Source: Octopus vulgaris | Taxonomy: Eukaryota | NCBI GenBank assembly: GCA_951406725.2 | Contig: OX597815.1 | Span: 177,940,001-178,004,000, forward strand | Length of the DNA stretch: 64,000 nt | Reading direction: 5' to 3' | Shown here: positions 520 through 61,437 of the stretch, piece by piece | Numbering within the stretch: position 1 is the first letter of the stretch | Layout of the letters: each line of letters starts with the position of its first letter | Translations under genes and position numbers: made by a program | The notes under the pieces: model-generated | Databases searched by the model: none | Told to the model about the DNA's origin: nothing | The model's input: the letters and a program-made list of their open reading frames with translations, nothing else

Positions 520-1749
520 GAATTCACTTCAAATATTTAGAAATAATTTTGAAGGGTTGGCTTGTGGAAAGCCCTTGATCAATGTTCTCAATTATCATAC
601 AGCATGTTTCCTTTGAAATTCAAGAAAATAATCTGCGCGTGTCTTTAGACTGAACTTAGCTCCATCTGTTTTCAATTGTTTTAGTGCGGTGCATGTCCAG
701 CAGACGTTTTGTACGACGGAAAAATCAGATTGAACGAAACAATGTTATGGAACTGTAATTCCAGTTTATTCTAGATAACTGTCAGAAGCAACACACTTTG
801 GAACACAAGGATGTATTCAGCACTTTTATAATAAAATACACATTACATGCGCTTATTCATACACGTACATGCGCTTATTCATACACTCTCTCATACATAG
901 TATCTACACACACATATATATATATATATAGGGACATTTTACGATCACAAATGAGTGAGAAGTAACGACGATAAACATATACGTATGTGTATGTACATGT
1001 ATTTATATATATATGTATATATATATTGAATTTATTTTGTTGTAAATATAAATCACGAATTCAGAGAAGGGATTTATAGAAGTAACAGTTCCCCGGTGGG
1101 ATAATCTAACATATTACTTTACGTTTAGACACATCGTCCTTGTTTTCCTTGAAGAGTTCTAGTGATTATCATTGAGGTGGTCCTCAGAGAACGTTTACAA
1201 GTTATTGGAATACCGATTTAGTCAAACTGCAGAAATTCTATATCATGAGGATTTAGAAAAATATAGCGAATAAACTCCAGTATGATTCCCTGAAGATGAA
1301 TTTTTATTGAACAAAGTAGTGTTAACATTATAGTGATGTCCATAAAAGCCTGCAGACTGCAAGAATTAATAGTTCGTAATAATTAAAACGACAGTAGCAA
1401 TAATAATGGTTTCTTCCATTCTTGCAAATATACAAATGTGTAATAAAGGTAATAGTCACTTAAAGTAACTTTTGCACGAGCGTAAAATATATTTTGTTGG
1501 CGTTGTAGGGAGGAAAGTTAAAGTCACTTTTGATAGTATTTAAACGAAGTAATGTGCGTACTGAGAGTTAAATACTGAAGGGCAGTGAAACCCATACTCA
1601 ATTCTATTGCCGTTAAAAGACATGAGTTTAACACATTTTTCAAACTCTAGCAAAAGTGTAGATATTGTGAGAGAGGTTTCGGTTAGTCTAATCTAATTAC
1701 TGTGGTATATCTTAATTATTAATATTATATTCAAATATAAAACAGTGAA

Positions 1750-3639: not shown

Positions 3640-4720
3640 ATGACATATTAATGAAGCATTAACCAGAATAGTTATTGGCCAGCTCTGTCATGCCTTGGTT
3701 TATTCATCACTGGTGCTAAGACATTACATCCAGGCATTAAGTGGTTCGTTGTTCCAATCTCATCGTTACAGAATTGCCACTACTCCATTTTCCATCACAT
3801 TCACATGGTATTTCCGGGTCAAGGAGCTTTGATCTGGAGCATCTAAGAAGCTTTCATGCCCTGCCTTTAGCCATGAGATTTGTAGCCGCAGGTGATGTGC
3901 TTCTGATCAACATCAGCTAGTTTGCTACGGTCATATATTTGCCATGCAGAAATTTCTGGTCCCAGCTATCAGCCAATTAGCCAATTGTTCATATTTTATT
4001 TTTCCCCTTGTCATTGATTTCACCATCTTAGCAACAACAGTTGCCGCACTTCCATCATGCGGTTCATGAACTCAATAGCAAATTTTTAACTCTTATGTCT
4101 GAAGTTTTTTCAATAAAGTCTAACCTATTCGCATCTATTTTCCGGTCAGTTTGAACGGTGAAGTTCTAGAGGAGTGAGATGTGATCATTTTCAAGCACTG
4201 GAGGTGATTTGTGTTTCCACCAGTTTGTATCATAGGGTAGGTCCAGGTTTTTTTTTAAATTACCCAGTGAATATATTGTGCTGCTCTATCATGCCTGTTG
4301 AGATACTGTGTTCGCGTAAGAAGACTGCACTTAGAGACAACATGATCAATGGTTTTATTTTGTTGTTGACATACACATCTTGGGCTACTTCCATTCGTTA
4401 ATATGTTGGCTTGGTAATTTCTTGTAGGTAGACATTAAATTGGGGCTGCTATGATAAACCCTTCCGTTTCTCATTTTAATCCAGAAGACACTAACCATTG
4501 ATGGGTAAGGGCTTTGTCAACATCGGTACTATTAGCTCTCTTTGGGTATTTGCCATTGAGAGGTTTTTCTTGCCATTTATCAGTAATAATAAGAAAAGGA
4601 GCAGTTTTAGCACGGGTTTTCATACTCTTAGCTGGAGATACACTACGATGCCAGCTGTTCACTACCAGAGTAGTTGGCAGAAAATAGAATGGTACTTTGA
4701 AGGTCAACAATTCAAATTTC
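3640..4720 (-). mobile_element. Dong/R4-type LINE fragments (thumb/CCHC knuckle)
   Basis: Minus-strand WQEKPLNGKYPKRANSTDVDKALTHQWLVSSGLK*ETEGFIIAA (~4440-4580) and NHLMPGCNVLAPVMNKPRHDRAGQ*LFW (~3660-3750); stops and frameshifts; at least two copies. Confidence 0.75.
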
Positions 4721-6470
4721 AATTACAATCTCTTTTCAGTATTTTAAGCAACATTTTGGGTGTTGTACGAAATGCACCAATTACAACAGGAATAATTGTT
4801 GCCTTGGTCTTCCAGTTTTCTGAGCTCTCTGGATAGATCCTGATATTTCTCATCTTTTTCAATTTCTTTGGCATCGTCCCTGCCATCATGGGGATTGCAA
4901 ATTTATGATGTGATGCTGTTTGTTTATTTTTATCTTCTTTGATCATGTCTGGTCTTTTTGCTTCAATATTAGGCTCAGCTTTTATGGAAAAATCCCAATA
5001 GAACTTGTAATTCTCATTTTCAATCGGGGCCTCTGGTTCCTGTTCATACCACTTTCGTGAAATTAACGTGCAAGTGGGTGAGAAATCCACAAACACGCGC
5101 TCTTTGTAATACAAGTACAACTCATTTTGTCCAGATGAGTGCATTAACGCAACGTGAAATAAAGTGTCTTCTTTAAGGATACAACGCACTACCAGGAACC
5201 GAACTCGCTTCCTTTCAATCCTTAATCGAATACCCATTAAGCCATGTGCCTTCTTGGTAATTCCTGTGTGAATTCCAACCTTTGTAGTCCCGACATCATC
5301 AATCGCGTTCGTGTTCTTTTTCAAGGCTAAAACTAGAGACAATGATTGACTCCTTTCTACAACATCCTTACAAGTGCTCTATTCACTTCATTATATGCTT
5401 TTGCGCTTCTTTTCTTCTTTTTTCTTCCTTTTTCTGTTAGAGAGGTGATAACCTTTGACGCAGGCCCCGAAGTCAGGAATCCTTGATATTCAGCTTCGAG
5501 TCATTTGCCCCACAACCATTAAACTGATTATTTCTTGCCTTCTTCATCTCTGTTCAGCTTTATCATTGCATTGTCCCTATGGAGATATTCCTTGCTATCA
5601 CTTTTATCATCATATACTGTAGTCTCTGAATAGATTCGAATATCAGCTTTTCACAATTTCAGAAATACTTTCTGTCTTTTTCTCCTAACTTTCTGCGATG
5701 TGAAAAAATGTTCAATTGTAGGCTTCATTTCAAAGAAAGCACTTCGCTTTAGGTTGTTCGTGCTTCATAGCAACGCATCTTCATTTTCTACGACTCTTTA
5801 CTAGATAGAATGCTAGTCCAATAATAATAGTCTATTTGCAAATCTAACCCTAACACGCCGTGTTTGCAGTAAGTCACATTCTGTGTTGTGTATTCGAAAT
5901 GAAATTTTTTGTTCTTGTTCTTTATTTATTCTGTCTAGAATTCCTAGTTCTTTTAGCGTCCAATTGGCAATGATGAAGCTGTAATTTATTATTTAGGTAG
6001 CTAGACTATTGATGTTTATTACTAACTTTTAGCAGATTCAAGTATTAAGCTAATGAGTCTATAATATCCCTTTCTCTTCTTACCTTCTATTTTGGTCTCT
6101 TTTGCGTTTTCTACTTCACTGATTCCTAAGTATTTTGTCTGTCTCTGTTTTTTTTCCCTAACTTTCGTATCTGTTTCTTTATCTAACATGTGATTAGCAT
6201 TCTTAAATTATATTCTCTCTCTTCAAAGTTGCCCCGACGCATTTGGTTAATCGGAATCTGATAAAAATTTCTCACTAGAAAATCTATGTAATCTCTGCTG
6301 CTGTAGTGTTCCTAGATGTTTATAATTTATAGAGATGGACCTGAGGTCGTCTATATAAAGTAAGTGGCTGATTATTTTATCATAACATTTGTAACCGAAT
6401 CTTGTCCTGTTTAACATGTCGGAGAAAGGTGTCAACTCTAGAAGAAATACTGCAGACAGGGATTATTATC
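4719..6470 (-). mobile_element. Dong/R4-type LINE remnant (RT + restriction-like endonuclease)
   Basis: SHLLYIDDL (RT catalytic motif, ORF 6247-6435) and FYWDFSIKAEPNIEAKRPDMIKEDK...IIPVVIGA (RLE PD..D motif, ORF 4719-5342). Confidence 0.8.
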
Positions 6471-6720: not shown

Positions 6721-6934
6721 TCTTCTTTCAAATTTTTTTTTCCATTTCTTGCCAAGTGCCTTCCCAACACCTAGAAGAAATTTACTGTATACATCGGTAG
6801 GCCACCAAAATAAACACACCAGAGTGTTCATTTACAAAGTCATGTGATAGACAAAGAAGAAGAAAAACAGAGAAAAAAGAAAGAAGGGGAAAAAGAAAAA
6901 GATGAAAAAAACGAGGAATTTCGTGCACATATTC

Positions 6935-7135
6935 AGAGATGCACATATCGTCAGCCATTAAGGGACATGCTCCACTGGCTAAGGTCAAACAGATGACAAG
7001 CAAATCTGTGGTATTGAGCAGAATAATTGCTCTAGACCGTCTCTTACACCAAGAAAAAACATGTACCGTATAACATTTCCAATCAATTAAGATCAGACGC
7101 CAGGAGAGTCAGTGCCTGGTATTACTATCAGCATT
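6935..7135 (-). mobile_element. Partial diverged copy of the (AAT)n-embedded ~550 bp element
   Basis: Reverse complement aligns by eye to ~60275-60470. Confidence 0.75.
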
Positions 7136-7138
7136 TGA

Positions 7139-7370
7139 AGGCGGCGAGCTGGTAGAAACGTTAGCACGTCGGGCGACATGCGTAGCCGCATTTCGTCTGC
7201 CGTTACGTTCTGAGTTCAAATTCCGCCGAGGTCGACTTTGCCTTTCATCCTTTCGGGGTCGATAAATTAAGTACCAGTTACGCACTGGGGTAGATGTAAT
7301 CGACTTAATCCGTTTGTCTGTCCTTGTTTGTCCCCTCTGTGTTTAGCCCCTTGTGGGTAGTAAAGAAATA
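7139..7370 (+). mobile_element. Full-length family A SINE with target-site duplication
   Basis: GGCGGCGAGCTGG head, GAGTTCAAATTCC B box, GCCTTTCATCCTTTCGGGGTCGATAAA core; flanked by GGTATTACTATCAgcATTT (7118) and GGTATTACTATCAttATTT (7371). Confidence 0.9.
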
Positions 7371-7550
7371 GGTATTACTATCATTATTTCATATACGCTC
7401 AACCATTATTATTATCATTAAAGCAGCTCCTACTAATTCTGCTACTACAAAATAACTGCTGCTGCTACTACTACTACTACTACTACTATACAACAACTAT
7501 ATCGGTGTGGGCTACAAAGCCATTCATAAGGAAAACATACATACAGACAC

Positions 7551-24339: not shown

Positions 24340-24765
24340 GCCAGTACCTATTTCTTTACTACCCACAAGGGGCTACACACAGAGAGGACAAACAAGGGCA
24401 GACAAACTGATTAAGTCGATTATATCGAGCCCAGTACGTAAATGGTACTTATTTAATCGACCCCGAAAGGATGAAAGGCAAAGTCGACCTCGGCGGAATT
24501 TGAACTCAGAACGTAACGACAGACGAAATACCAATTTCTTTACTACCCACAAGGGGCTACACACAGAGAGGACAAACAAGGGCAGACAAACGGATTAAGT
24601 CGATTATATCGACCCCAGTACGTAAATGGTACTTATTTAATCGACCCCGAAAGGGTGAAAGGCAAAATCGACCTTGGCAGAATTTGAACTCTGAACGTAG
24701 CGGCAGATGAAATACCGCTGAGCATATCGCCCGGCGTGCTAACGATTCTGCCAGCTCACCGCCTT
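24340..24765 (-). mobile_element. Family A SINE with ~180 bp tandem duplication of its 3' part
   Basis: ATTTCTTTACTACCCACAAGGGGCTACACACAGAGAGGACAAACAAGGGCAGACAAAC occurs at ~24351 and ~24534. Confidence 0.85.
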
Positions 24766-27324: not shown

Positions 27325-27528
27325 TCGCCGGGCGAAATGCTTAGCGGTATTTCGTCTGTCGTTACGCTCTGAGTTCAAATTACGCCTAGGTCGACTTTGC
27401 CTTTCATCGTTTCGGGGTCGATAAATAACGTACCAGTTTTGCACTGGGGCCGATGTAATCGACTTAATTCCTTTGTCTGTCCTTGTTTGTCCCCTCTTTG
27501 TTTAGCCCCTTGTGGGCAATAAAGAAAT
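27325..27528 (+). mobile_element. Family A SINE
   Basis: Close match to 7165-7370. Confidence 0.85.
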
Positions 27529-28326
27529 ATATATTACTTATGAGGTATTCTATAGTTTTCAGCTAAAGTGTAGTTGGGTCTTAAGCGGGTGGTATAAACC
27601 TAGCAACATGTGTTTTATAGTGAAAACGAAATTTCCATTCAAATTGTAGTTAGCGGACGATTTTCTGTTCGAGTCTAACCGTTTTAAGTCGTAGTGGAAA
27701 CGCGACCTTTGTTGCAAATAGGCAGATGAGTTTTGTATAAATTTTATATCTGAATAATTTACTATATTTACTATATATCAGAAAAATTTACTTTATATCT
27801 GAATAATTTACTATATTTACTATATTCCACTAGCGAAATCTATACGTATCTTGCAGGTAACTCCATACCAATTTAACTTTGTGCAGCATTCGTGGGAAAA
27901 CAGAATAAAAGAGCTTTTGTTAGATTATCTCTACGAGAAAATATTTCCCTTTGCTGTTGTAAAAAAAAAAAATCGCAGAGAATATTCAACGTCTTCATTC
28001 AATTTCATTACTGCATTTATGTGGCTGTTTATGACAAGAAATTACGCTTTCATGTAAAACAACTATATTTTGTAGCCATTATCCGTAACCTGCTCCCACA
28101 ACACTTCAGTAGCTCTACTTTGCATCACTTGCAAACTTATATGTTCTATGATCATTGAAATGAAACATCTACCACAATAACCAGTCTTTAATTTGATTTT
28201 CTGTTCCTAGGTTAATCGTCAACAGAGATTGCCGTCCTACTCATAAACCTTCACGGTAGTTCCATTATTTGGTGAAAACAATACCGCCAAAGCAACTTAA
28301 ACCATCGAAAGGACGGGTGCATCTGC

Positions 28327-28379
<53 letters not shown>

Positions 28380-28399
28380 CATGCATACATACATGTATG

Positions 28400-28444
<45 letters not shown>

Positions 28445-28540
28445 ATAAAACGGTAAGATAACAAAAGAAAGAAAGAGACCTCAATATTATGTAAATAGAG
28501 GAAATTTATCTATACAATATGTTACATTACTCGGTAGTCA

Positions 28541-28603
28541 AGATAAAACTCTGAGTTTCAGATGCCGAAGTGGAAATCCACAACACCATCTCTTCGGTTA
28601 TCT
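28541..28603 (-). ncRNA. Type I hammerhead ribozyme (variant) in PLE 3' UTR
   Basis: Exact reverse complement of 33490-33552. Confidence 0.75.
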
Positions 28604-28797
28604 GGCTATTTGAAAACGTTATGAAAAAATACCGTTAAAAATGAAGGGAAATTACTCTGTTATAACTCTGCTTTGCCTGCGTACTTATACATCGCTCGCA
28701 TTTTTCGTCATAAAAATTATATAAAAATACATAAAAATATATAAAAATATATAAAAATATATAAAATCTTCTTGGGACATAACACAGAAAGCATGTT

Positions 28798-30438
28798 CTA
28801 TCCGTTTTCTTTAGAGGACCAAAAACGTAACAGAAATTTAGTCACATGTGGGCATGATCCGAAAAGTTCTGTCCTTGTATTTAGACATGTGGTAGGGTCT
28901 AAGCTGCTTTTCCAGATAAGCCATCTCTCCATGTCGCATAAACCGCACCTTCCGCTGCCGTTAGTATAGGGCTTACATCTGGCCAAAATCTTCCATTGTA
29001 TGTTATAATCGACACCTTTATCTCTTAAAGACCAAATATGATTGGATAATTGTGTCGCTTTTCTTTTGTTCCAGTGCCTAAAGCTCAAAGTGTGGTTATT
29101 GAACCTGGCCTTGAAATTACCCTCTGTCAGGCCCACGTATTTCTTCGTCAAAACGGTGTCTTTAGTGGTTATAGAGTTTACGGTAGCTTCATATATGATG
29201 GTCTTGGACATGCAAGCTCCATTTAGCGGGCACAATTCTTTATTCCTGCATGAACAGCTGTTTTCTTCTTGTGTTTTTTGTATGTTATGATTGATTATGT
29301 TTTTAAAATTGGTAGTTGAACTAAAACTAATTTTTAAATTGTGTCTATTGAAGAGTTTCCTATAAGCATGGTTAACTGGAAAATGTCTATCTATCAGTGC
29401 TAGGAAATATTTACCTATATTGAAGGCCACCTCGGGTGAGTAAGGGGGCGTAAACCAGATGACCTTCCTATTTCTATTATTCCTTTTCCTTATTGTTGGG
29501 CTGGTGATAGGTGTATATTTTATTTTTTCGCTAAAACCACTATCTTTTAAAGCTTTATTATAAACTGGGGCAACGCTATTGAAGATGTCCTCATTAGATG
29601 AGAGGCTAGAAATCCTCTTACTAATATTTTTAACTAAATTTTTGAATACTATAGGGGGATGGCATGAACCTACATTAATATAACTTAGTCTATCATTGGG
29701 CTTCCTATAAGGCTTATAAATATTATTATTAAGATCTAAGGAAACGTCTAAGAAATTGACAACCGTCAGGTTAGTGTCTATAGTTATACTAAGTCCGAAG
29801 TGTTTCATTAACTGGATAATATCCTTCCTAAAACGATCTTGTGCTGGTCCATTTGTATTAGCTGTTAAGGCGAGGGCATCATCTTTGTAGATGGCGAAAT
29901 GTACGTTAGGGAATGTCTTACTGAAGGTATCTAGGAGAAAGAGTCCAATTAGATCACAGATGCCTGCCCCATCATATGAACCCATGCTCACATCGAAAGC
30001 GCCCTCCGTGTCGGTATTTTTTACCCACTTTGCATTCTCACTGAAAAGTAATGTCTTTCTAGCATGGAAGATTATATCCTTATCATTGGTACTAATTTCT
30101 ATGAAGTCACTAGCGAAGATTAGGGCTTTATCTAGCAGTTCTTTAGAGATAGAGGCATAAAAATCAACAATATCGAATTGTGTAAACCTCGCTTTTTTCT
30201 TATTCTTAATAGCTTTAAACCAGTCTACGACTTCTATACTATTGGACCATTGCACTAGCCTAGTATCGGTCTTAATTTTCGTATTTATTTTATCTAAAAT
30301 TTCTTTGCTAATAATCCCTAGTTCTGACTTGGCTGGGTTGATAAGCCTACATTTAGGATTGGAAAGGAAGTTTTCTTTGTGGTCTTTAATAGTAATAAAG
30401 GCCTCTTTTTGGGGGAGGGTTTCTATTTTTTTATCTAA
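28798..30438 (-). CDS. PLE polyprotein, 5'-truncated: reverse transcriptase + GIY-YIG endonuclease
   Basis: CRLINPAKSELG, FDIVDFYASI, MGSYDGA, IYKDDAL, VNFLDV.LDL; CSCRNKELCPLNGAC linker; IIYEATV...YVGLTEGNFKARFNNH; CGLCDME; LNTRTE. The first ~25 aa of the 571 aa track ORF are antisense pseudo-LTR. Confidence 0.92.
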   Translation of the reverse strand, partial: LDKKIETLPQKEAFITIKDHKENFLSNPKCRLINPAKSELGIISKEILDKINTKIKTDTRLVQWSNSIEVVDWFKAIKNKKKARFTQFDIVDFYASISKELLDKALIFASDFIEISTNDKDIIFHARKTLLFSENAKWVKNTDTEGAFDVSMGSYDGAGICDLIGLFLLDTFSKTFPNVHFAIYKDDALALTANTNGPAQDRFRKDIIQLMKHFGLSITIDTNLTVVNFLDVSLDLNNNIYKPYRKPNDRLSYINVGSCHPPIVFKNLVKNISKRISSLSSNEDIFNSVAPVYNKALKDSGFSEKIKYTPITSPTIRKRNNRNRKVIWFTPPYSPEVAFNIGKYFLALIDRHFPVNHAYRKLFNRHNLKISFSSTTNFKNIINHNIQKTQEENSCSCRNKELCPLNGACMSKTIIYEATVNSITTKDTVLTKKYVGLTEGNFKARFNNHTLSFRHWNKRKATQLSNHIWSLRDKGVDYNIQWKILARCKPYTNGSGRCGLCDMERWLIWKSSLDPTTCLNTRTELFGSCPHVTKFLLRFWSSKENG

Positions 30439-30977
30439 GAGGGTAATTTCAAGGCCAGGTTCAATAACCACACTTTGAGTTTTAGGCACTGGAACAAAAG
30501 AAAAGCGACACAATTATCCAATCATATTTGGTCTTTAAGAGATAAAGGTGTCGATTATAACATACAATGGAAGATTTTGGCCAGATGTAAGCCCTATACT
30601 AACGGCAGCGGAAGGTGCGGTTTATGCGACATGGAGAGATGGCTTATCTGGAAAAGCAGCTTAGACCCTACCACATGTCTAAATACAAGGACAGAACTTT
30701 TCGGATCATGCCCACATGTGACTAAATTTCTGTTACGTTTTTGGTCCCCTAAAGAAAACGGATAGAACATGCTTTCTGTGTTATGTCCCAAGAAGATTTT
30801 ATATATTTTTATATATTTTTATATATTTTTATGTATTTTTATATAATTTTTATGACGAAAAATGCGAGCGATGTATAAGTACGCAGGCAAAGCAGAGTTA
30901 TAACAGAGTAATTTCCCTTCATTTTTAACGGTATTTTTTCATAACGTTTTCAAATAGCCAGAAACCGAAGAGATGGT
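30438..30977 (+). repeat. Inverted pseudo-LTR (3' end copy) of left PLE, truncated inside the hammerhead
   Basis: Matches 32968-33508; ORF 30475-30765 repeats the endonuclease C-terminus; ends at CCGAAGAGATGGT. Confidence 0.9.
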
Positions 30978-31654
30978 AAGATAACAAAAGAAAGAAAGAG
31001 ACCTCAATATTATGTAAATAGAGGAAATTTATCTATACAATATGTTACATTACTCGGTAGTCAAGATAAAATAAATCTCCCGAGTTTCAGATGCCGAAGT
31101 GGAAATCCACGACACCATCTCTTCGGTTATCTGGCTATTTGAAAACGTTATGAAAAAATACCGTTAAAAATGAAGGGAAATTACTCTGTTATAACTCTGC
31201 TTTGCCTGCGTACTTATACATCGCTCGCATTTTTCGTCATAAAAATTATATAAAAATACATAAAAATATATAAAAATATATAAAAATATATAAAATCTTC
31301 TTGGGACATAACACAGAAAGCATGTTCTATCCGTTTTCTTTAGGGGACCAAAAACGTAACAGAAATTTAGTCACATGTGGGCATGATCCGAAAAGTTCTG
31401 TCCTTGTATTTAGACATGTGGTAGGGTCTAAGCTGCTTTTCCAGATAAGCCATCTCTCCATGTCGCATAAACCAAGCACCTTCCGCTGCCGTTAGTATAG
31501 GGCTTACATCTGGCCAAAATCTTCCATTGTATGTTATAATCGACACCTTTATCTCTTAAAGACCAAATATGATTGGATAATTGTGTCGCTTTTCTTTTGT
31601 TCCAGTGCCTAAAGCTCAAAGTGTGGTTATTGAACCTGGCCTTGAAATTACCCT
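30975..31654 (-). repeat. Inverted pseudo-LTR (3' end copy) of right PLE
   Basis: Matches ~28452-29124 with small indels (in hammerhead helix III at ~31071; 2 nt insertion at ~31474). Confidence 0.9.
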
Positions 31655-33295
31655 TTAGATAAAAAAATAGAAACCCTCCCCCAAAAAGAGGCCTTTATTA
31701 CTATTAAAGACCACAAAGAAAACTTCCTTTCCAATCCTAAATGTAGGCTTATCAACCCAGCCAAGTCAGAACTAGGGATTATTAGCAAAGAAATTTTAGA
31801 TAAAATAAATACGAAAATTAAGACCGATACTAGGCTAGTGCAATGGTCCAATAGTATAGAAGTCGTAGACTGGTTTAAAGCTATTAAGAATAAGAAAAAA
31901 GCGAGGTTTACACAATTCGATATTGTTGATTTTTATGCCTCTATCTCTAAAGAACTGCTAGATAAAGCCCTAATCTTCGCTAGTGACTTCATAGAAATTA
32001 GTACCAATGATAAGGATATAATCTTCCATGCTAGAAAGACATTACTTTTCAGTGAGAATGCAAAGTGGGTAAAAAATACCGACACGGAGGGCGCTTTCGA
32101 TGTGAGCATGGGTTCATATGATGGGGCAGGCATCTGTGATCTAATTGGACTCTTTCTCCTAGATACCTTCAGTAAGACATTCCCTAACGTACATTTCGCC
32201 ATCTACAAAGATGATGCCCTCGCCTTAACAGCTAATACAAATGGACCAGCACAAGATCGTTTTAGGAAGGATATTATCCAGTTAATGAAACACTTCGGAC
32301 TTAGTATAACTATAGACACTAACCTGACGGTTGTCAATTTCTTAGACGTTTCCTTAGATCTTAATAATAATATTTATAAGCCTTATAGGAAGCCCAATGA
32401 TAGACTAAGTTATATTAATGTAGGTTCATGCCATCCCCCTATAGTATTCAAAAATTTAGTTAAAAATATTAGTAAGAGGATTTCTAGCCTCTCATCTAAT
32501 GAGGACATCTTCAATAGCGTTGCCCCAGTTTATAATAAAGCTTTAAAAGATAGTGGTTTTAGCGAAAAAATAAAATATACACCTATCACCAGCCCAACAA
32601 TAAGGAAAAGGAATAATAGAAATAGGAAGGTCATCTGGTTTACGCCCCCTTACTCACCCGAGGTGGCCTTCAATATAGGTAAATATTTCCTAGCACTGAT
32701 AGATAGACATTTTCCAGTTAACCATGCTTATAGGAAACTCTTCAATAGACACAATTTAAAAATTAGTTTTAGTTCAACTACCAATTTTAAAAACATAATC
32801 AATCATAACATACAAAAAACACAAGAAGAAAACAGCTGTTCATGCAGGAATAAAGAATTGTGCCCGCTAAATGGAGCTTGCATGTCCAAGACCATCATAT
32901 ATGAAGCTACCGTAAACTCTATAACCACTAAAGACACCGTTTTGACGAAGAAATACGTGGGCCTGACAGAGGGTAATTTCAAGGCCAGGTTCAATAACCA
33001 CACTTTGAGCTTTAGGCACTGGAACAAAAGAAAAGCGACACAATTATCCAATCATATTTGGTCTTTAAGAGATAAAGGTGTCGATTATAACATACAATGG
33101 AAGATTTTGGCCAGATGTAAGCCCTATACTAACGGCAGCGGAAGGTGCGGTTTATGCGACATGGAGAGATGGCTTATCTGGAAAAGCAGCTTAGACCCTA
33201 CCACATGTCTAAATACAAGGACAGAACTTTTCGGATCATGCCCACATGTGACTAAATTTCTGTTACGTTTTTGGTCCCCTAAAGAAAACGGATAG
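31655..33295 (+). CDS. PLE polyprotein, 5'-truncated: reverse transcriptase + GIY-YIG endonuclease
   Basis: Frame open from LDKKIETL at 31655 through the track ORF 31838-33295; translation equals the left copy except FWSP vs FWSS at the C-terminus. Confidence 0.92.
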   Translation, partial: LDKKIETLPQKEAFITIKDHKENFLSNPKCRLINPAKSELGIISKEILDKINTKIKTDTRLVQWSNSIEVVDWFKAIKNKKKARFTQFDIVDFYASISKELLDKALIFASDFIEISTNDKDIIFHARKTLLFSENAKWVKNTDTEGAFDVSMGSYDGAGICDLIGLFLLDTFSKTFPNVHFAIYKDDALALTANTNGPAQDRFRKDIIQLMKHFGLSITIDTNLTVVNFLDVSLDLNNNIYKPYRKPNDRLSYINVGSCHPPIVFKNLVKNISKRISSLSSNEDIFNSVAPVYNKALKDSGFSEKIKYTPITSPTIRKRNNRNRKVIWFTPPYSPEVAFNIGKYFLALIDRHFPVNHAYRKLFNRHNLKISFSSTTNFKNIINHNIQKTQEENSCSCRNKELCPLNGACMSKTIIYEATVNSITTKDTVLTKKYVGLTEGNFKARFNNHTLSFRHWNKRKATQLSNHIWSLRDKGVDYNIQWKILARCKPYTNGSGRCGLCDMERWLIWKSSLDPTTCLNTRTELFGSCPHVTKFLLRFWSPKENG

Positions 33296-33489
33296 AACAT
33301 GCTTTCTGTGTTATGTCCCAAGAAGATTTTATATATTTTTATATATTTTTATATATTTTTATGTATTTTTATATAATTTTTATGACGAAAAATGCGAGCG
33401 ATGTATAAGTACGCAGGCAAAGCAGAGTTATAACAGAGTAATTTCCCTTCATTTTTAACGGTATTTTTTCATAACGTTTTCAAATAGCC

Positions 33490-33552
33490 AGATAACCGAA
33501 GAGATGGTGTTGTGGATTTCCACTTCGGCATCTGAAACTCAGAGTTTTATCT
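33490..33552 (+). ncRNA. Type I hammerhead ribozyme (variant) in PLE 3' UTR
   Basis: Helix I AGATAA/TTATCT; core CCGAAGA; helix II GATG...GTGG-ATTT-CCAC...CATC plus an extra T; GAAA; helix III ACT-CAG-AGT; predicted GUU cleavage after 33546. Confidence 0.75.
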
Positions 33553-33581
33553 TGACTACCGAGTAATGTAACATATTGTAT

Positions 33582-33623
<42 letters not shown>

Positions 33624-33959
33624 TATTTAAAACAGTTTGATTCGGTTTCTTGTTTCTTCAATTTTCGGAAGCCCCTAGCGTGAGTACGACTCCTTCAGGC
33701 TCTGCATTGCCGATTCCGCCGATTCCTACTAAATGTGTTGAGTGCTCTTTTCTTTTGTCCACTCAGTCGTATACATACGGGTGTCTCAGTTCTTTGTAAT
33801 CATCTGTTTTAAGTTAGAAAAATGCACATAGTTCATCTGTATTTGAAGAGAAATTGTTACAAATAAACTTGAGAATCCTTTTACCTGACGTATTCAATGG
33901 ATCCACCGTTAACATCAATGGAATCTTTAATACAGGTTCGGAAGAATTACCATGCTCAA

Positions 33960-40760: not shown

Positions 40761-40839
40761 CAGCTGCTAGAGATGGCGAGACTTGGTAACCCAGTGGTTC
40801 GTCCACAGAGACCGATCGAATAAGTACCACACTTAGCAG

Positions 40840-41095
40840 TACTTCGTCTCCCGTTACGTTTTGAGTTCAAATTCCACCAAGGTCGATTTTGCCTTTCGTC
40901 TTTTCGGGGTCGATTAAATAAGTACCAGTTACGAAGTTGGGTCGATGTGATCGAATTAATTCCTTTGTCTGTCCTTGTTTGTCCCCTCTATGTTTATCCC
41001 CATGTAGGCAATAAAGAAATACATATTGGGGTCGATTCATTGGACTAAAAAGTCTTCTAGGCCGTGCTCCAACATGGCCAGAGTCTAATAACTGA
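40840..41095 (+). mobile_element. Family A SINE (5' truncated) plus family B-like tail
   Basis: TTGAGTTCAAATTCC...CGGGGTCGATTAAATAAGTACCAG...AAAGAAATA. Confidence 0.75.
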
Positions 41096-47738: not shown

Positions 47739-48200
47739 TATAATAAGGGTTAGGCAAAAGAATTTGCTTCACCACACACCGAACTTTGGCAGCCAAAATT
47801 AAAAAAACAGCTGTTTCTTCCACCGTAAGAAACAGACAATATATGCTCAAAAACGTATCACGTAGGCAGAGAAAGAAAACAACGAAATTCACCCGGCATT
47901 AGATTAATTGTGTACGTGTTTCGAAATTAGATAGATATGAAAAATGCAAGAACTGCACTTCCATTCTGATCACTTTTCTCATCAGGACATTATTTCCAGT
48001 ATTTCTGTACACAGTTAATATAATGCCGGGTGAATTTCGTTGTTTTCTTTCTCTGCCTACGTGATACGTTTTTGAGCATATATTGCCTGGGAGTTGTTTC
48101 TTAAAGTAGAAGAAATAGCTAGTTTTTTTTAAAATTTTGGCTGCTATTTCTAAAGTTCGGTGTGTGGTGAAGCAAATCCTTTTGCCTAACCCTTATTATA
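47739..48200. mobile_element. Fold-back element (~180 bp arms) with hammerhead in the spacer
   Basis: TATAATAAGGGTTAGGCAAAAG...GGCATTAGATTAATTGTGTAC vs GTACACAGTTAATATAATGCC...CTTTTGCCTAACCCTTATTATA; spacer minus strand CTGATGA GAAA...TTTC GAAA CACGT A. Confidence 0.85.
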
Positions 48201-48261
48201 ATAAATATTGTTTAAATTTACCGAATCACTACTTGGTGGAATTATTAATTAGTTTTACCCC

Positions 48262-48318
<57 letters not shown>

Positions 48319-60269: not shown

Positions 60270-60822
60270 CCCTGATGCAGTACCAGGCAGTGGCTCTCAT
60301 GGCTTCTGATCTTAACTGATTGGAAGTGTTATCATGTACATTGTTTTGTCTTGGTATAAAAGATGGGCTACAGCAAATATTCTGCTCAATACCACAGATT
60401 TGCTTGTCAATTGTTTGACCTTAACTAGTTGAGCATGTCCCTTAGTGGCTGACGATATGTGCATCTCTGATCACGAGCAGAAGTAGTGGGGGAGCATCAT
60501 AGCCATGTGTTGAGAGGGATTCTTTGGGGTTTGAATGATTCACCTCTGGAAACATGGGTGGTTCTTTCAACATCCTTAAACAACCCTTATTCAGGGACCT
60601 TTTGAGCGGGATGGGCTACTCAACCTGAAGAAAATTCTAACTGGGCCCCACCGGCAAGGTCATGTGCCGTTTATCTTGATATGAGATCACCATGTCGCGC
60701 ACATATGGTTGTGATGCATGTGCCTGGTGTACCTTTATCAGACGGGTAGTCATGATGGGTATATTGGGCTTCGTATATTTTACCCCAGTGTCACTTTGAT
60801 GGCATGCACTGCTCTCTCACTC

Positions 60823-60881
<59 letters not shown>

Positions 60882-61437
60882 TGATGATGATGCAGTACCA
60901 GGCAATGGTTCTCATGGCTTCTGATCTTAACTGATTGGAAGTGTTATCATGTATATTGTTTTGTCTTGGTATAAAAGATGGGCTACAGCAAATATTTTGC
61001 TCAATACCATAGATTTGCTTGTCAGTTGTTTGACCGTAACCAGTTGAGCATGTCCCTTAGTGGCTGACGATATGTGCATCTCTGATCACGAGCAGAAGTA
61101 GTGGGGGAGCATCATAGCCATGTGTTGAGAGGGATTCTTTGGGGTTTGAATAATTCACCTCTGGAAACATGGTTGGTTCTTTCAACATCCTTAAACAACC
61201 CTTATTCAGGAACCGCTTGAGCGGGATGGGCTACTCAACATGAAGAAAATTCTAACTGGGCCCCACCTGCAAGGTCATGTGCTGTTTATCTTGATATGAG
61301 ATCACCATGTCGCGCACATATGGTTGTGATGCATGTGCCTGGTGTGCCCTTACAAGACGGGTAGTCATGATGGGTATATTGGGCTTCGTATATTTTACCC
61401 CAGTGTCACTTTGATGGCATGAACTGCTCTCTCACTC

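Follow-up and report, generated by a model that had tools for sequence, protein, structure and literature searches.

A near-perfect 5.1-kb palindrome of a doubled, truncated Penelope-like element in an Octopus vulgaris genome assembly

We describe a 5145-nt palindrome (positions 28442-33586; 35% G+C) in a 64,000-nt stretch of the Octopus vulgaris assembly GCA_951406725.2 (contig OX597815.1, positions 177,940,001 to 178,004,000 of the forward strand; hereafter the window). The palindrome is present in the assembly sequence as described here, is bounded by two TA runs, and is built from a unit whose coding sequence and insertion site identify it as a 5'-truncated Penelope-like element (PLE) of the Hydra clade in (TA)n. 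The locus is a known element clade in a known insertion layout, to which an uncommon extra doubling is added as seen in the assembly. It is tentatively hypothesized that one standard Hydra-clade insertion, while being made or at a later time, was doubled on site when a copying strand folded back on itself.

Structure of the palindrome and identity of the element

Self-BLAST and alignment paired positions 28507-30977 with 31114-33586 as inverted arms that are 99.76% identical over 2474 columns (E 0.0), a likeness far above chance level. Self-BLAST divides the locus into four segments, A to D (Table 1). The element bodies A and D face outward, and the inverted copies B and C meet at the central joint 3' end to 3' end, sharing three bases (GGT) next to a 136-nt unpaired loop. 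The overlap and loop lie where the original prediction had placed them. Bodies A and D differ by one mismatch in 1932 positions (28815/33278), which causes the only residue change between the two open reading frames (ORFs), S/P at position 542 of 546 aa; a single-residue difference had been claimed, as had an inversion junction (J) common to both halves to within 1 bp, and J2 of the right half is indeed J1 of the left half minus one C. Direct repeats of 680 nt (28452-29123 / 30975-31654) and 541 nt (30438-30977 / 32968-33508) also occur inside the locus. Both outer ends lie in (TA)n and are unequal: a 65-nt tail is found on the left side and is absent on the right, and 55 nt of this tail recur in the loop while being absent from both B and D.

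The private differences, which include changes at 30480, 30962, 31070-31081, 31111 and 31474, are concentrated centrally. Seven of eight fall in B and C, a central stretch of 1220 out of 5148 nt (p=0.0003); for the copies of the 3' part alone the figure is six of seven (p=0.05). Four of the private differences are insertions or deletions. None of the derived differences is common to two copies, so the variants yield no genealogy. At 31070-31081 the change in C makes a local hairpin longer, the effect expected of a quasi-palindrome template switch; a family variant or a read error is equally possible.

Of 7999 candidates scored against the ORF, 712 are homologs at E<=0.001, and the best 120 of these are 41-53% identical to it and almost all unnamed. 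The reverse transcriptase (RT) motif YxDD occurs at residue 184 and IY..YVG at 415-436; the Pfam match to GIY-YIG is weak (E 0.016, below the cut-off). An RT plus GIY-YIG ORF in an inverted, truncated layout bears out the PLE identity first proposed. The endonuclease (EN) is C-terminal and is preceded by a CxCX5C linker at 395-403, a motif found in 117 of the 120 listed homologs, and CX2-5CxxC is absent from the ORF. The GIY-YIG-like domain has no Cys between 415 and 436, and CxxC and CxH occur near the C-terminus. We take the canonical CCHH cysteines to lie in the 415-436 stretch, and the CCHH motif was judged absent on that assumption. Naiad/Chlamys identity was ruled out, as the EN sits C-terminally. 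A C-terminal EN, CxCX5C, CxxC and CxH near the end, and (TA)n targets are the Hydra-clade features given by Craig et al. 2021 (PMC8557442). The traits of insertion by EN-bearing (EN+) PLEs are also present, namely 5' truncation, an inverted 3' copy and the one-sided 65-nt tail.

Compared with eight aligned homologs, the ORFs lack 142-182 N-terminal residues, so neither half is autonomous. RWK and DKT, found in 83 and 101 of the 120 listed homologs, respectively, belong to the region cut away here by truncation. Both halves read YKDD where 118 of the 120 listed homologs have YRDD, and FYAS where 109 have FYPS; each may be a family or a private state. The original prediction took the near-identity of the halves to imply a very recent, probably active family. 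We do not retain this claim, since near-identity dates the doubling only, while the ORFs are truncated and the RT residues depart from near-invariant ones.

Each body contains a hammerhead-like motif, of which the minimum-energy fold recovered stem II only. A strict hammerhead core had no matches within the locus. Rfam gave no matches in the window at gathering score; at E<=5 there were 18 matches, all under gathering score (17 microRNA families and one viral UTR), with no hammerhead among them.

Table 1. Features of the palindromic locus (positions in the window; ORF motifs in residues)
Feature	Position	Strand	Evidence
Left (TA)n-type microsatellite, insertion target	28330..28441	.	sequence
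65-nt 3' tail, left outer (long) end only; 55 nt recur in C	28442..28506	-	alignment; family contigs
Segment A: 5'-truncated body, truncation point to long 3' end	28442..30438	-	self-BLAST, alignment
Hammerhead-like motif in A, mirror of 33490-33552	28541..28603	-	sequence comparison
Left-half truncated RT + GIY-YIG ORF, 546 aa, without start codon	28798..30438	-	
Inversion junction J1, head-to-head, clean, 1 common base	30438	.	sequence; upstream family sequence at loose ends before 31655
Segment B: 540-nt copy of 3' part, pseudo-long terminal repeat (pLTR)-like, 2 private differences	30438..30977	+	
End of segment B, 5 nt into stem II of hammerhead-like motif	30977	+	
Central tail-to-tail joint, 3-nt GGT microhomology	30975..30977	.	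self-BLAST
Segment C: 680-nt inverted copy of 3' part	30975..31654	-	
136-nt unpaired loop: terminal part of element, ends 10 nt before long end	30978..31113	-	
Two private differences in loop	31070-31081 and 31111	-	
2-nt insertion in C, frame broken	31474-31475	-	
Inversion junction J2, J1 minus one base (C)	31654..31655	.	alignment
Segment D: 5'-truncated body, terminates at short 3' end	31655..33586	+	
Right-half truncated RT + GIY-YIG ORF, 546 aa	31655..33295	+	
ORF motifs CxCX5C, CxxC and CxH (right-half numbering)	395-403, 498-501 and 529-531		
Putative hammerhead-like motif in D, 1-nt loop III, C for U at second core position	33490..33552	+	
Right (TA)n microsatellite	33587..33619	.	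sequence

Family copies in public sequence data

Data on the family consist of short contigs from the public runs X1, X2, X3, X5 and X8, which possibly derive from other animals. Run X1 contains 9426 matching contigs, 3906 of them at least 99% alike, and the family is thus abundant. This fits a young family; activity is not thereby demonstrated. Family contigs in all five runs terminate in (TA)n at the long end (loose ends before 30973-30976), and at least two contigs of X2 stop at the short 3' end (loose end before 31030), as counted in 24 of 1224 loose-end rows. Upstream of the truncation the family sequence continues, as shown in X2, X3 and X5 by loose ends before 31655. In 14 of the 15 joints inspected, out of 198, an antisense 3' stub is fused head-to-head with a sense 3' piece, as in J, so a single 2.6-kb unit appears to be ordinary for this family. 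These joints lie at scattered positions and most of their short sides measure 19-28 nt, which makes them indicative only.

The central joint at 30975-30977 is spanned by no listed contig (32 of 4822 pieces over 30930-31025; about 80% of X1 and about 76% of X3 read, together with X2 and X8). The longest piece listed there is 55 nt and all begin at or after 30969; contigs show presence only, and this result was weighed neither way. Equally for an empty site, the listed contigs end close to the TA runs and none bridges the flanks, which again can show presence only. Starting at 30973, many copies of the family agree with the central joint, and with such a template the microhomology would be 5 nt rather than 3 (chance 0.8%). 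One X1 contig has a 9-nt insertion at 33708 in the right flank at a depth of 18.9, compared with 59.2 in the adjacent unique flank, and possibly represents a second haplotype that could serve for phasing.

More distant relatives were compared at 79 metagenome loci, drawn from the best 80 of 279 and carried on contigs of only 1.2-8.9 kb. Direct repeats of at least 40 nt occur in 37 of the 79 and inverted repeats in seven, with a longest arm of 188 nt. None contains the doubled unit, a result of little power with contigs of this length. One metagenome contig (L051:1-5083) carries a related element as a complete tandem, head to tail (2656 nt, 99.9% alike).

Origin of the doubled unit

The same junction in both halves, together with a single difference in 1932 body positions, indicates one template. 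That the halves came from one rearranged copy and not from two insertions, as had been predicted, is upheld on this ground. Tracing one 2622-nt unit (tail, C and D) along a path with two switches yields the 5145-nt locus. The path runs forward on the left inverted repeat, switches by homology to the opposite strand of the right repeat and returns via body and junction; a 3-nt microhomology switch near the left end then takes it forward into the right flank. Five differences (six bases) are left over if the homology switch lies near the outer end of the common repeat. Two positions tested in the switch-point scan gave no exact register.

We propose that the ancestral insert comprised the inverted 3' copy with its tail, the junction and the 5'-truncated body within a TA run. 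A strand extending leftward on the inverted copy would have halted when it was 10 nt from the left TA run; ACC at its 3' end would have paired with GGT 139 nt back, and the strand would then have copied itself through the junction and body. The inverted copy at the left end would, through homology, then have captured the new 3' part. The event may have happened during fill-in of an insertion intermediate or later at a stalled replication fork, as the sequence fits both; in the fill-in variant, the filling strand would fold back with 10 nt remaining to the left target junction, and the left cDNA would then capture it. Fold-back or duplication after insertion was already part of the original prediction and agrees with this model. 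What has to be added is a second, homology-driven switch, since the 55 nt of tail in the loop, absent from B and D, make a simple self fold-back of one cDNA insufficient. On a 2.6-kb template the central breakpoints are separated by only about 140 nt, which a fold-back predicts, and at least three common bases would be found at a random joint in 6.7% of cases. Fold-back doubling is further supported by the outer ends, which are the long end and the short end known in other family copies, both in (TA)n.

Several observations weigh against local fold-back doubling. Segment B, the expected copy of C, has 4 differences from C over its 540 nt, whereas the bodies have 1 over 1932 nt (Fisher p=0.009), and this central excess requires either error-prone synthesis or sequencing errors. 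At two loop sites A agrees with D and not with C, so the homology switch must be confined to about 28507-28546 or heteroduplex repair must be invoked; later switch points leave 8-10 differences. In DNA folding, a penalty of about 10 kcal/mol is incurred when the ACC/GGT pair is forced, and a nearer GGT was available 26 nt away. The junctions of yeast origin-dependent inverted-repeat amplification (ODIRA) described in PMC10766186 involve repeats of 5-6 bp that are 40-80 nt apart, compared with 3 nt and a 136-nt loop here. A fold-back guided by structure was rejected, as the ACC/GGT pair is not favoured in DNA folding.

It is possible, if rather doubtful, that the palindrome is an assembly artefact, a caveat already raised in the original prediction and given some weight by the differences at the centre, in which case the animal would carry an ordinary 2.6-kb insertion only and a fold-back read, or a join between isomers via the 620-nt inverted repeats, would have entered the contig. 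Joining the left part of one inversion isomer to the right part of the other gives exactly this locus. The central clustering of private differences, with its insertions and deletions, is what thin read support would give, and in this respect it speaks for an artefact and against fold-back doubling. At 30962 one base is missing, which departs from the family state: contigs of all four runs compared carry it. Real palindromes may also sequence poorly at their centres, which tempers the argument from clustering. The 136-nt offset falls within the 200-bp limit for calling fold-back reads in PMC12870357, where such reads (reversal <=200 bp) make up about 0.55-0.6% of Oxford Nanopore Technologies (ONT) genomic reads but are virtually absent from HiFi; the platform behind this assembly may be either. 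No adapter-like or foreign bases occur at the turn, the 3-nt microhomology is not something that an artefact would demand, and the flanks differ, so that a misjoin would be needed besides the chimeric read.

Second-generation retrotransposition is an unlikely origin. Here a truncated, inverted copy elsewhere would have been transcribed and re-mobilised in trans, and two cDNAs, primed on opposite target strands with a long and a short start and both running through the junction into the inverted part, would have been joined at GGT/ACC. Read inward from their outer ends, the two halves do copy a same-sense template, and the central joint would be the usual joint of a two-armed insertion. The same five residual differences are left over with no need for a narrow switch window, and the loop variants of C would be true differences between the two repeats of the source. 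PLE protein nicks and extends both strands in vitro from two start sites that bracket the tail (PMC11167929), and movement in trans of pLTR-flanked cargo has been published (PMC3846280). The source, however, would have to be transcribed after losing its 5' region, and thus without a promoter, and two cDNAs of at least 2.5 kb would have to pass through a 620-bp RNA hairpin and both halt no more than 150 nt from the source end. That hairpin would be an expected ADAR substrate, yet no run of A-to-G changes was found in the four 3'-end copies. No further copy of J came to light either, in an analysis that did not extend to a genome-wide search. The broader proposition, that dead inverted Penelope copies are transcribed and re-mobilised in trans by two-armed priming, each round being able to make a near-perfect palindrome of several kb out of an inverted insertion, seems to us no more probable than this.

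Two independent insertions, or independent cDNAs of normal element RNA, that met by chance are highly improbable, and the shared junction comes close to refuting them. In their favour, copies of the family are very numerous and (TA)n is their target, and inverted tandems formed by double insertion are known in Drosophila (PMC5932611). Against them, truncation and inversion would have had to use the same two bases twice while joints elsewhere are scattered, and the centre has no TA run or target remnant.

Further repeats, implications and comparison with known systems

Other repeats were found in the window. An older palindrome of 462 nt with arms 79% alike lies at 47739-48265, flanked on both sides by TA runs. 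Its right arm is longer by about 60 bases, which gives it the long-end/short-end layout of the main element, to which its sequence is unrelated. Two tandem copies of a 550-nt repeat (96%), each followed by (AAT)n, occupy 60273-61437, and a further 200-nt piece lies at 6933-7136. An abundant interspersed repeat of 200-240 nt, 75-94% alike, occurs at 7138-7379, 24345-24765 (including a tandem pair at 24345-24716), 27326-27538, 40832-41029 and other positions, and resembles a short interspersed nuclear element by size only. A 219-codon open frame at 4719-5378 (-) had no Pfam matches and presumably resembles the endonuclease end of a non-LTR retrotransposon.

The origin of tandem and inverted PLE insertions is treated as an open question in PMC8557442, PMC3846280 and PMC11167929. 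If real, a doubled unit with a common junction is a snapshot that can distinguish local fold-back from re-mobilisation, and would be a very small inverted-repeat-driven triplication seeded by the repeats of the retro-insertion itself. Re-mobilisation, if true, would mean that Penelope elements breed palindromes by copying their own inversion junctions, with the two priming sites and the two stopping points of a single event preserved at this locus, and it predicts that J occurs at other loci. A real and transcribed locus would form a stem of about 2.47 kb, in which the original prediction saw a possible siRNA or ADAR substrate. The locus was also considered as an ADAR fossil, which was rejected: of three clean substitutions, only one is A-to-G on a possible RNA strand, and that base is also found in family contigs. 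The palindrome is predicted to collapse to either 2.6-kb isomer via its 680- and 541-nt direct repeats. Long palindromes are reported to be unstable (PMC10766186), and given these direct repeats a real allele is likely to be young and rare. The importance of the finding is modest, since a single locus composed of known parts is concerned, nothing points to a function, and an assembly error is a real possibility.

An inverted 5'-truncated copy with a one-sided tail is the published PLE footprint (PMC8557442, PMC3846280, PMC11167929). Each half of the locus, and the pair of outer ends, shares the layout of the standard EN+ insertion in these sources, whereas here the unit is doubled together with its junction and has a 65-nt tail, longer than the 30-40 nt of the standard insertion. 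The nearest named family is the octopus element Hydra-1_Obim (supplement of PMC8557442), which by eye has many peptide strings and the hammerhead layout with a 1-nt loop III in common with the locus; it is a different family, the copy described here having no N-terminal part and a non-canonical hammerhead core. Head-to-head is the commonest form according to PMC3846280, while the centre of this locus is tail-to-tail. A doubled PLE unit with a shared junction was not found in the literature searched, which left the older Drosophila Penelope literature largely uncovered.

Three further systems can be set beside the locus. The long-read artefact of PMC12870357 likewise reverses strand within 200 bp, and differs in that the flanks of this locus are not mirror images. 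In L1-associated fold-backs, retrotransposition ends self-annealed into inverted duplications, as proposed here; those events rearrange host DNA in cancer and cell lines, while only element sequence is doubled in the octopus (bioRxiv 10.1101/2024.12.14.628481). The human duplication-inverted triplication-duplication rearrangements (DUP-TRP/INV-DUP) of PMC11293582 combine a hidden switch between inverted repeats with one microhomology junction, the latter having 1-9 bp of microhomology at 14 of 24 second junctions, and they produce a duplicated piece, an inverted triplicated piece and an inverted copy of the spacer, all of which have counterparts here. In the octopus all of this lies within one 2.6-kb retro-insertion, with repeats of about 620 nt as compared with about 920 bp for the smallest pair in that cohort, although Alu pairs are also reported. 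The palindrome may therefore be regarded as a DUP-TRP/INV-DUP topology in miniature, and it is from this topology alone that we infer the mechanism.

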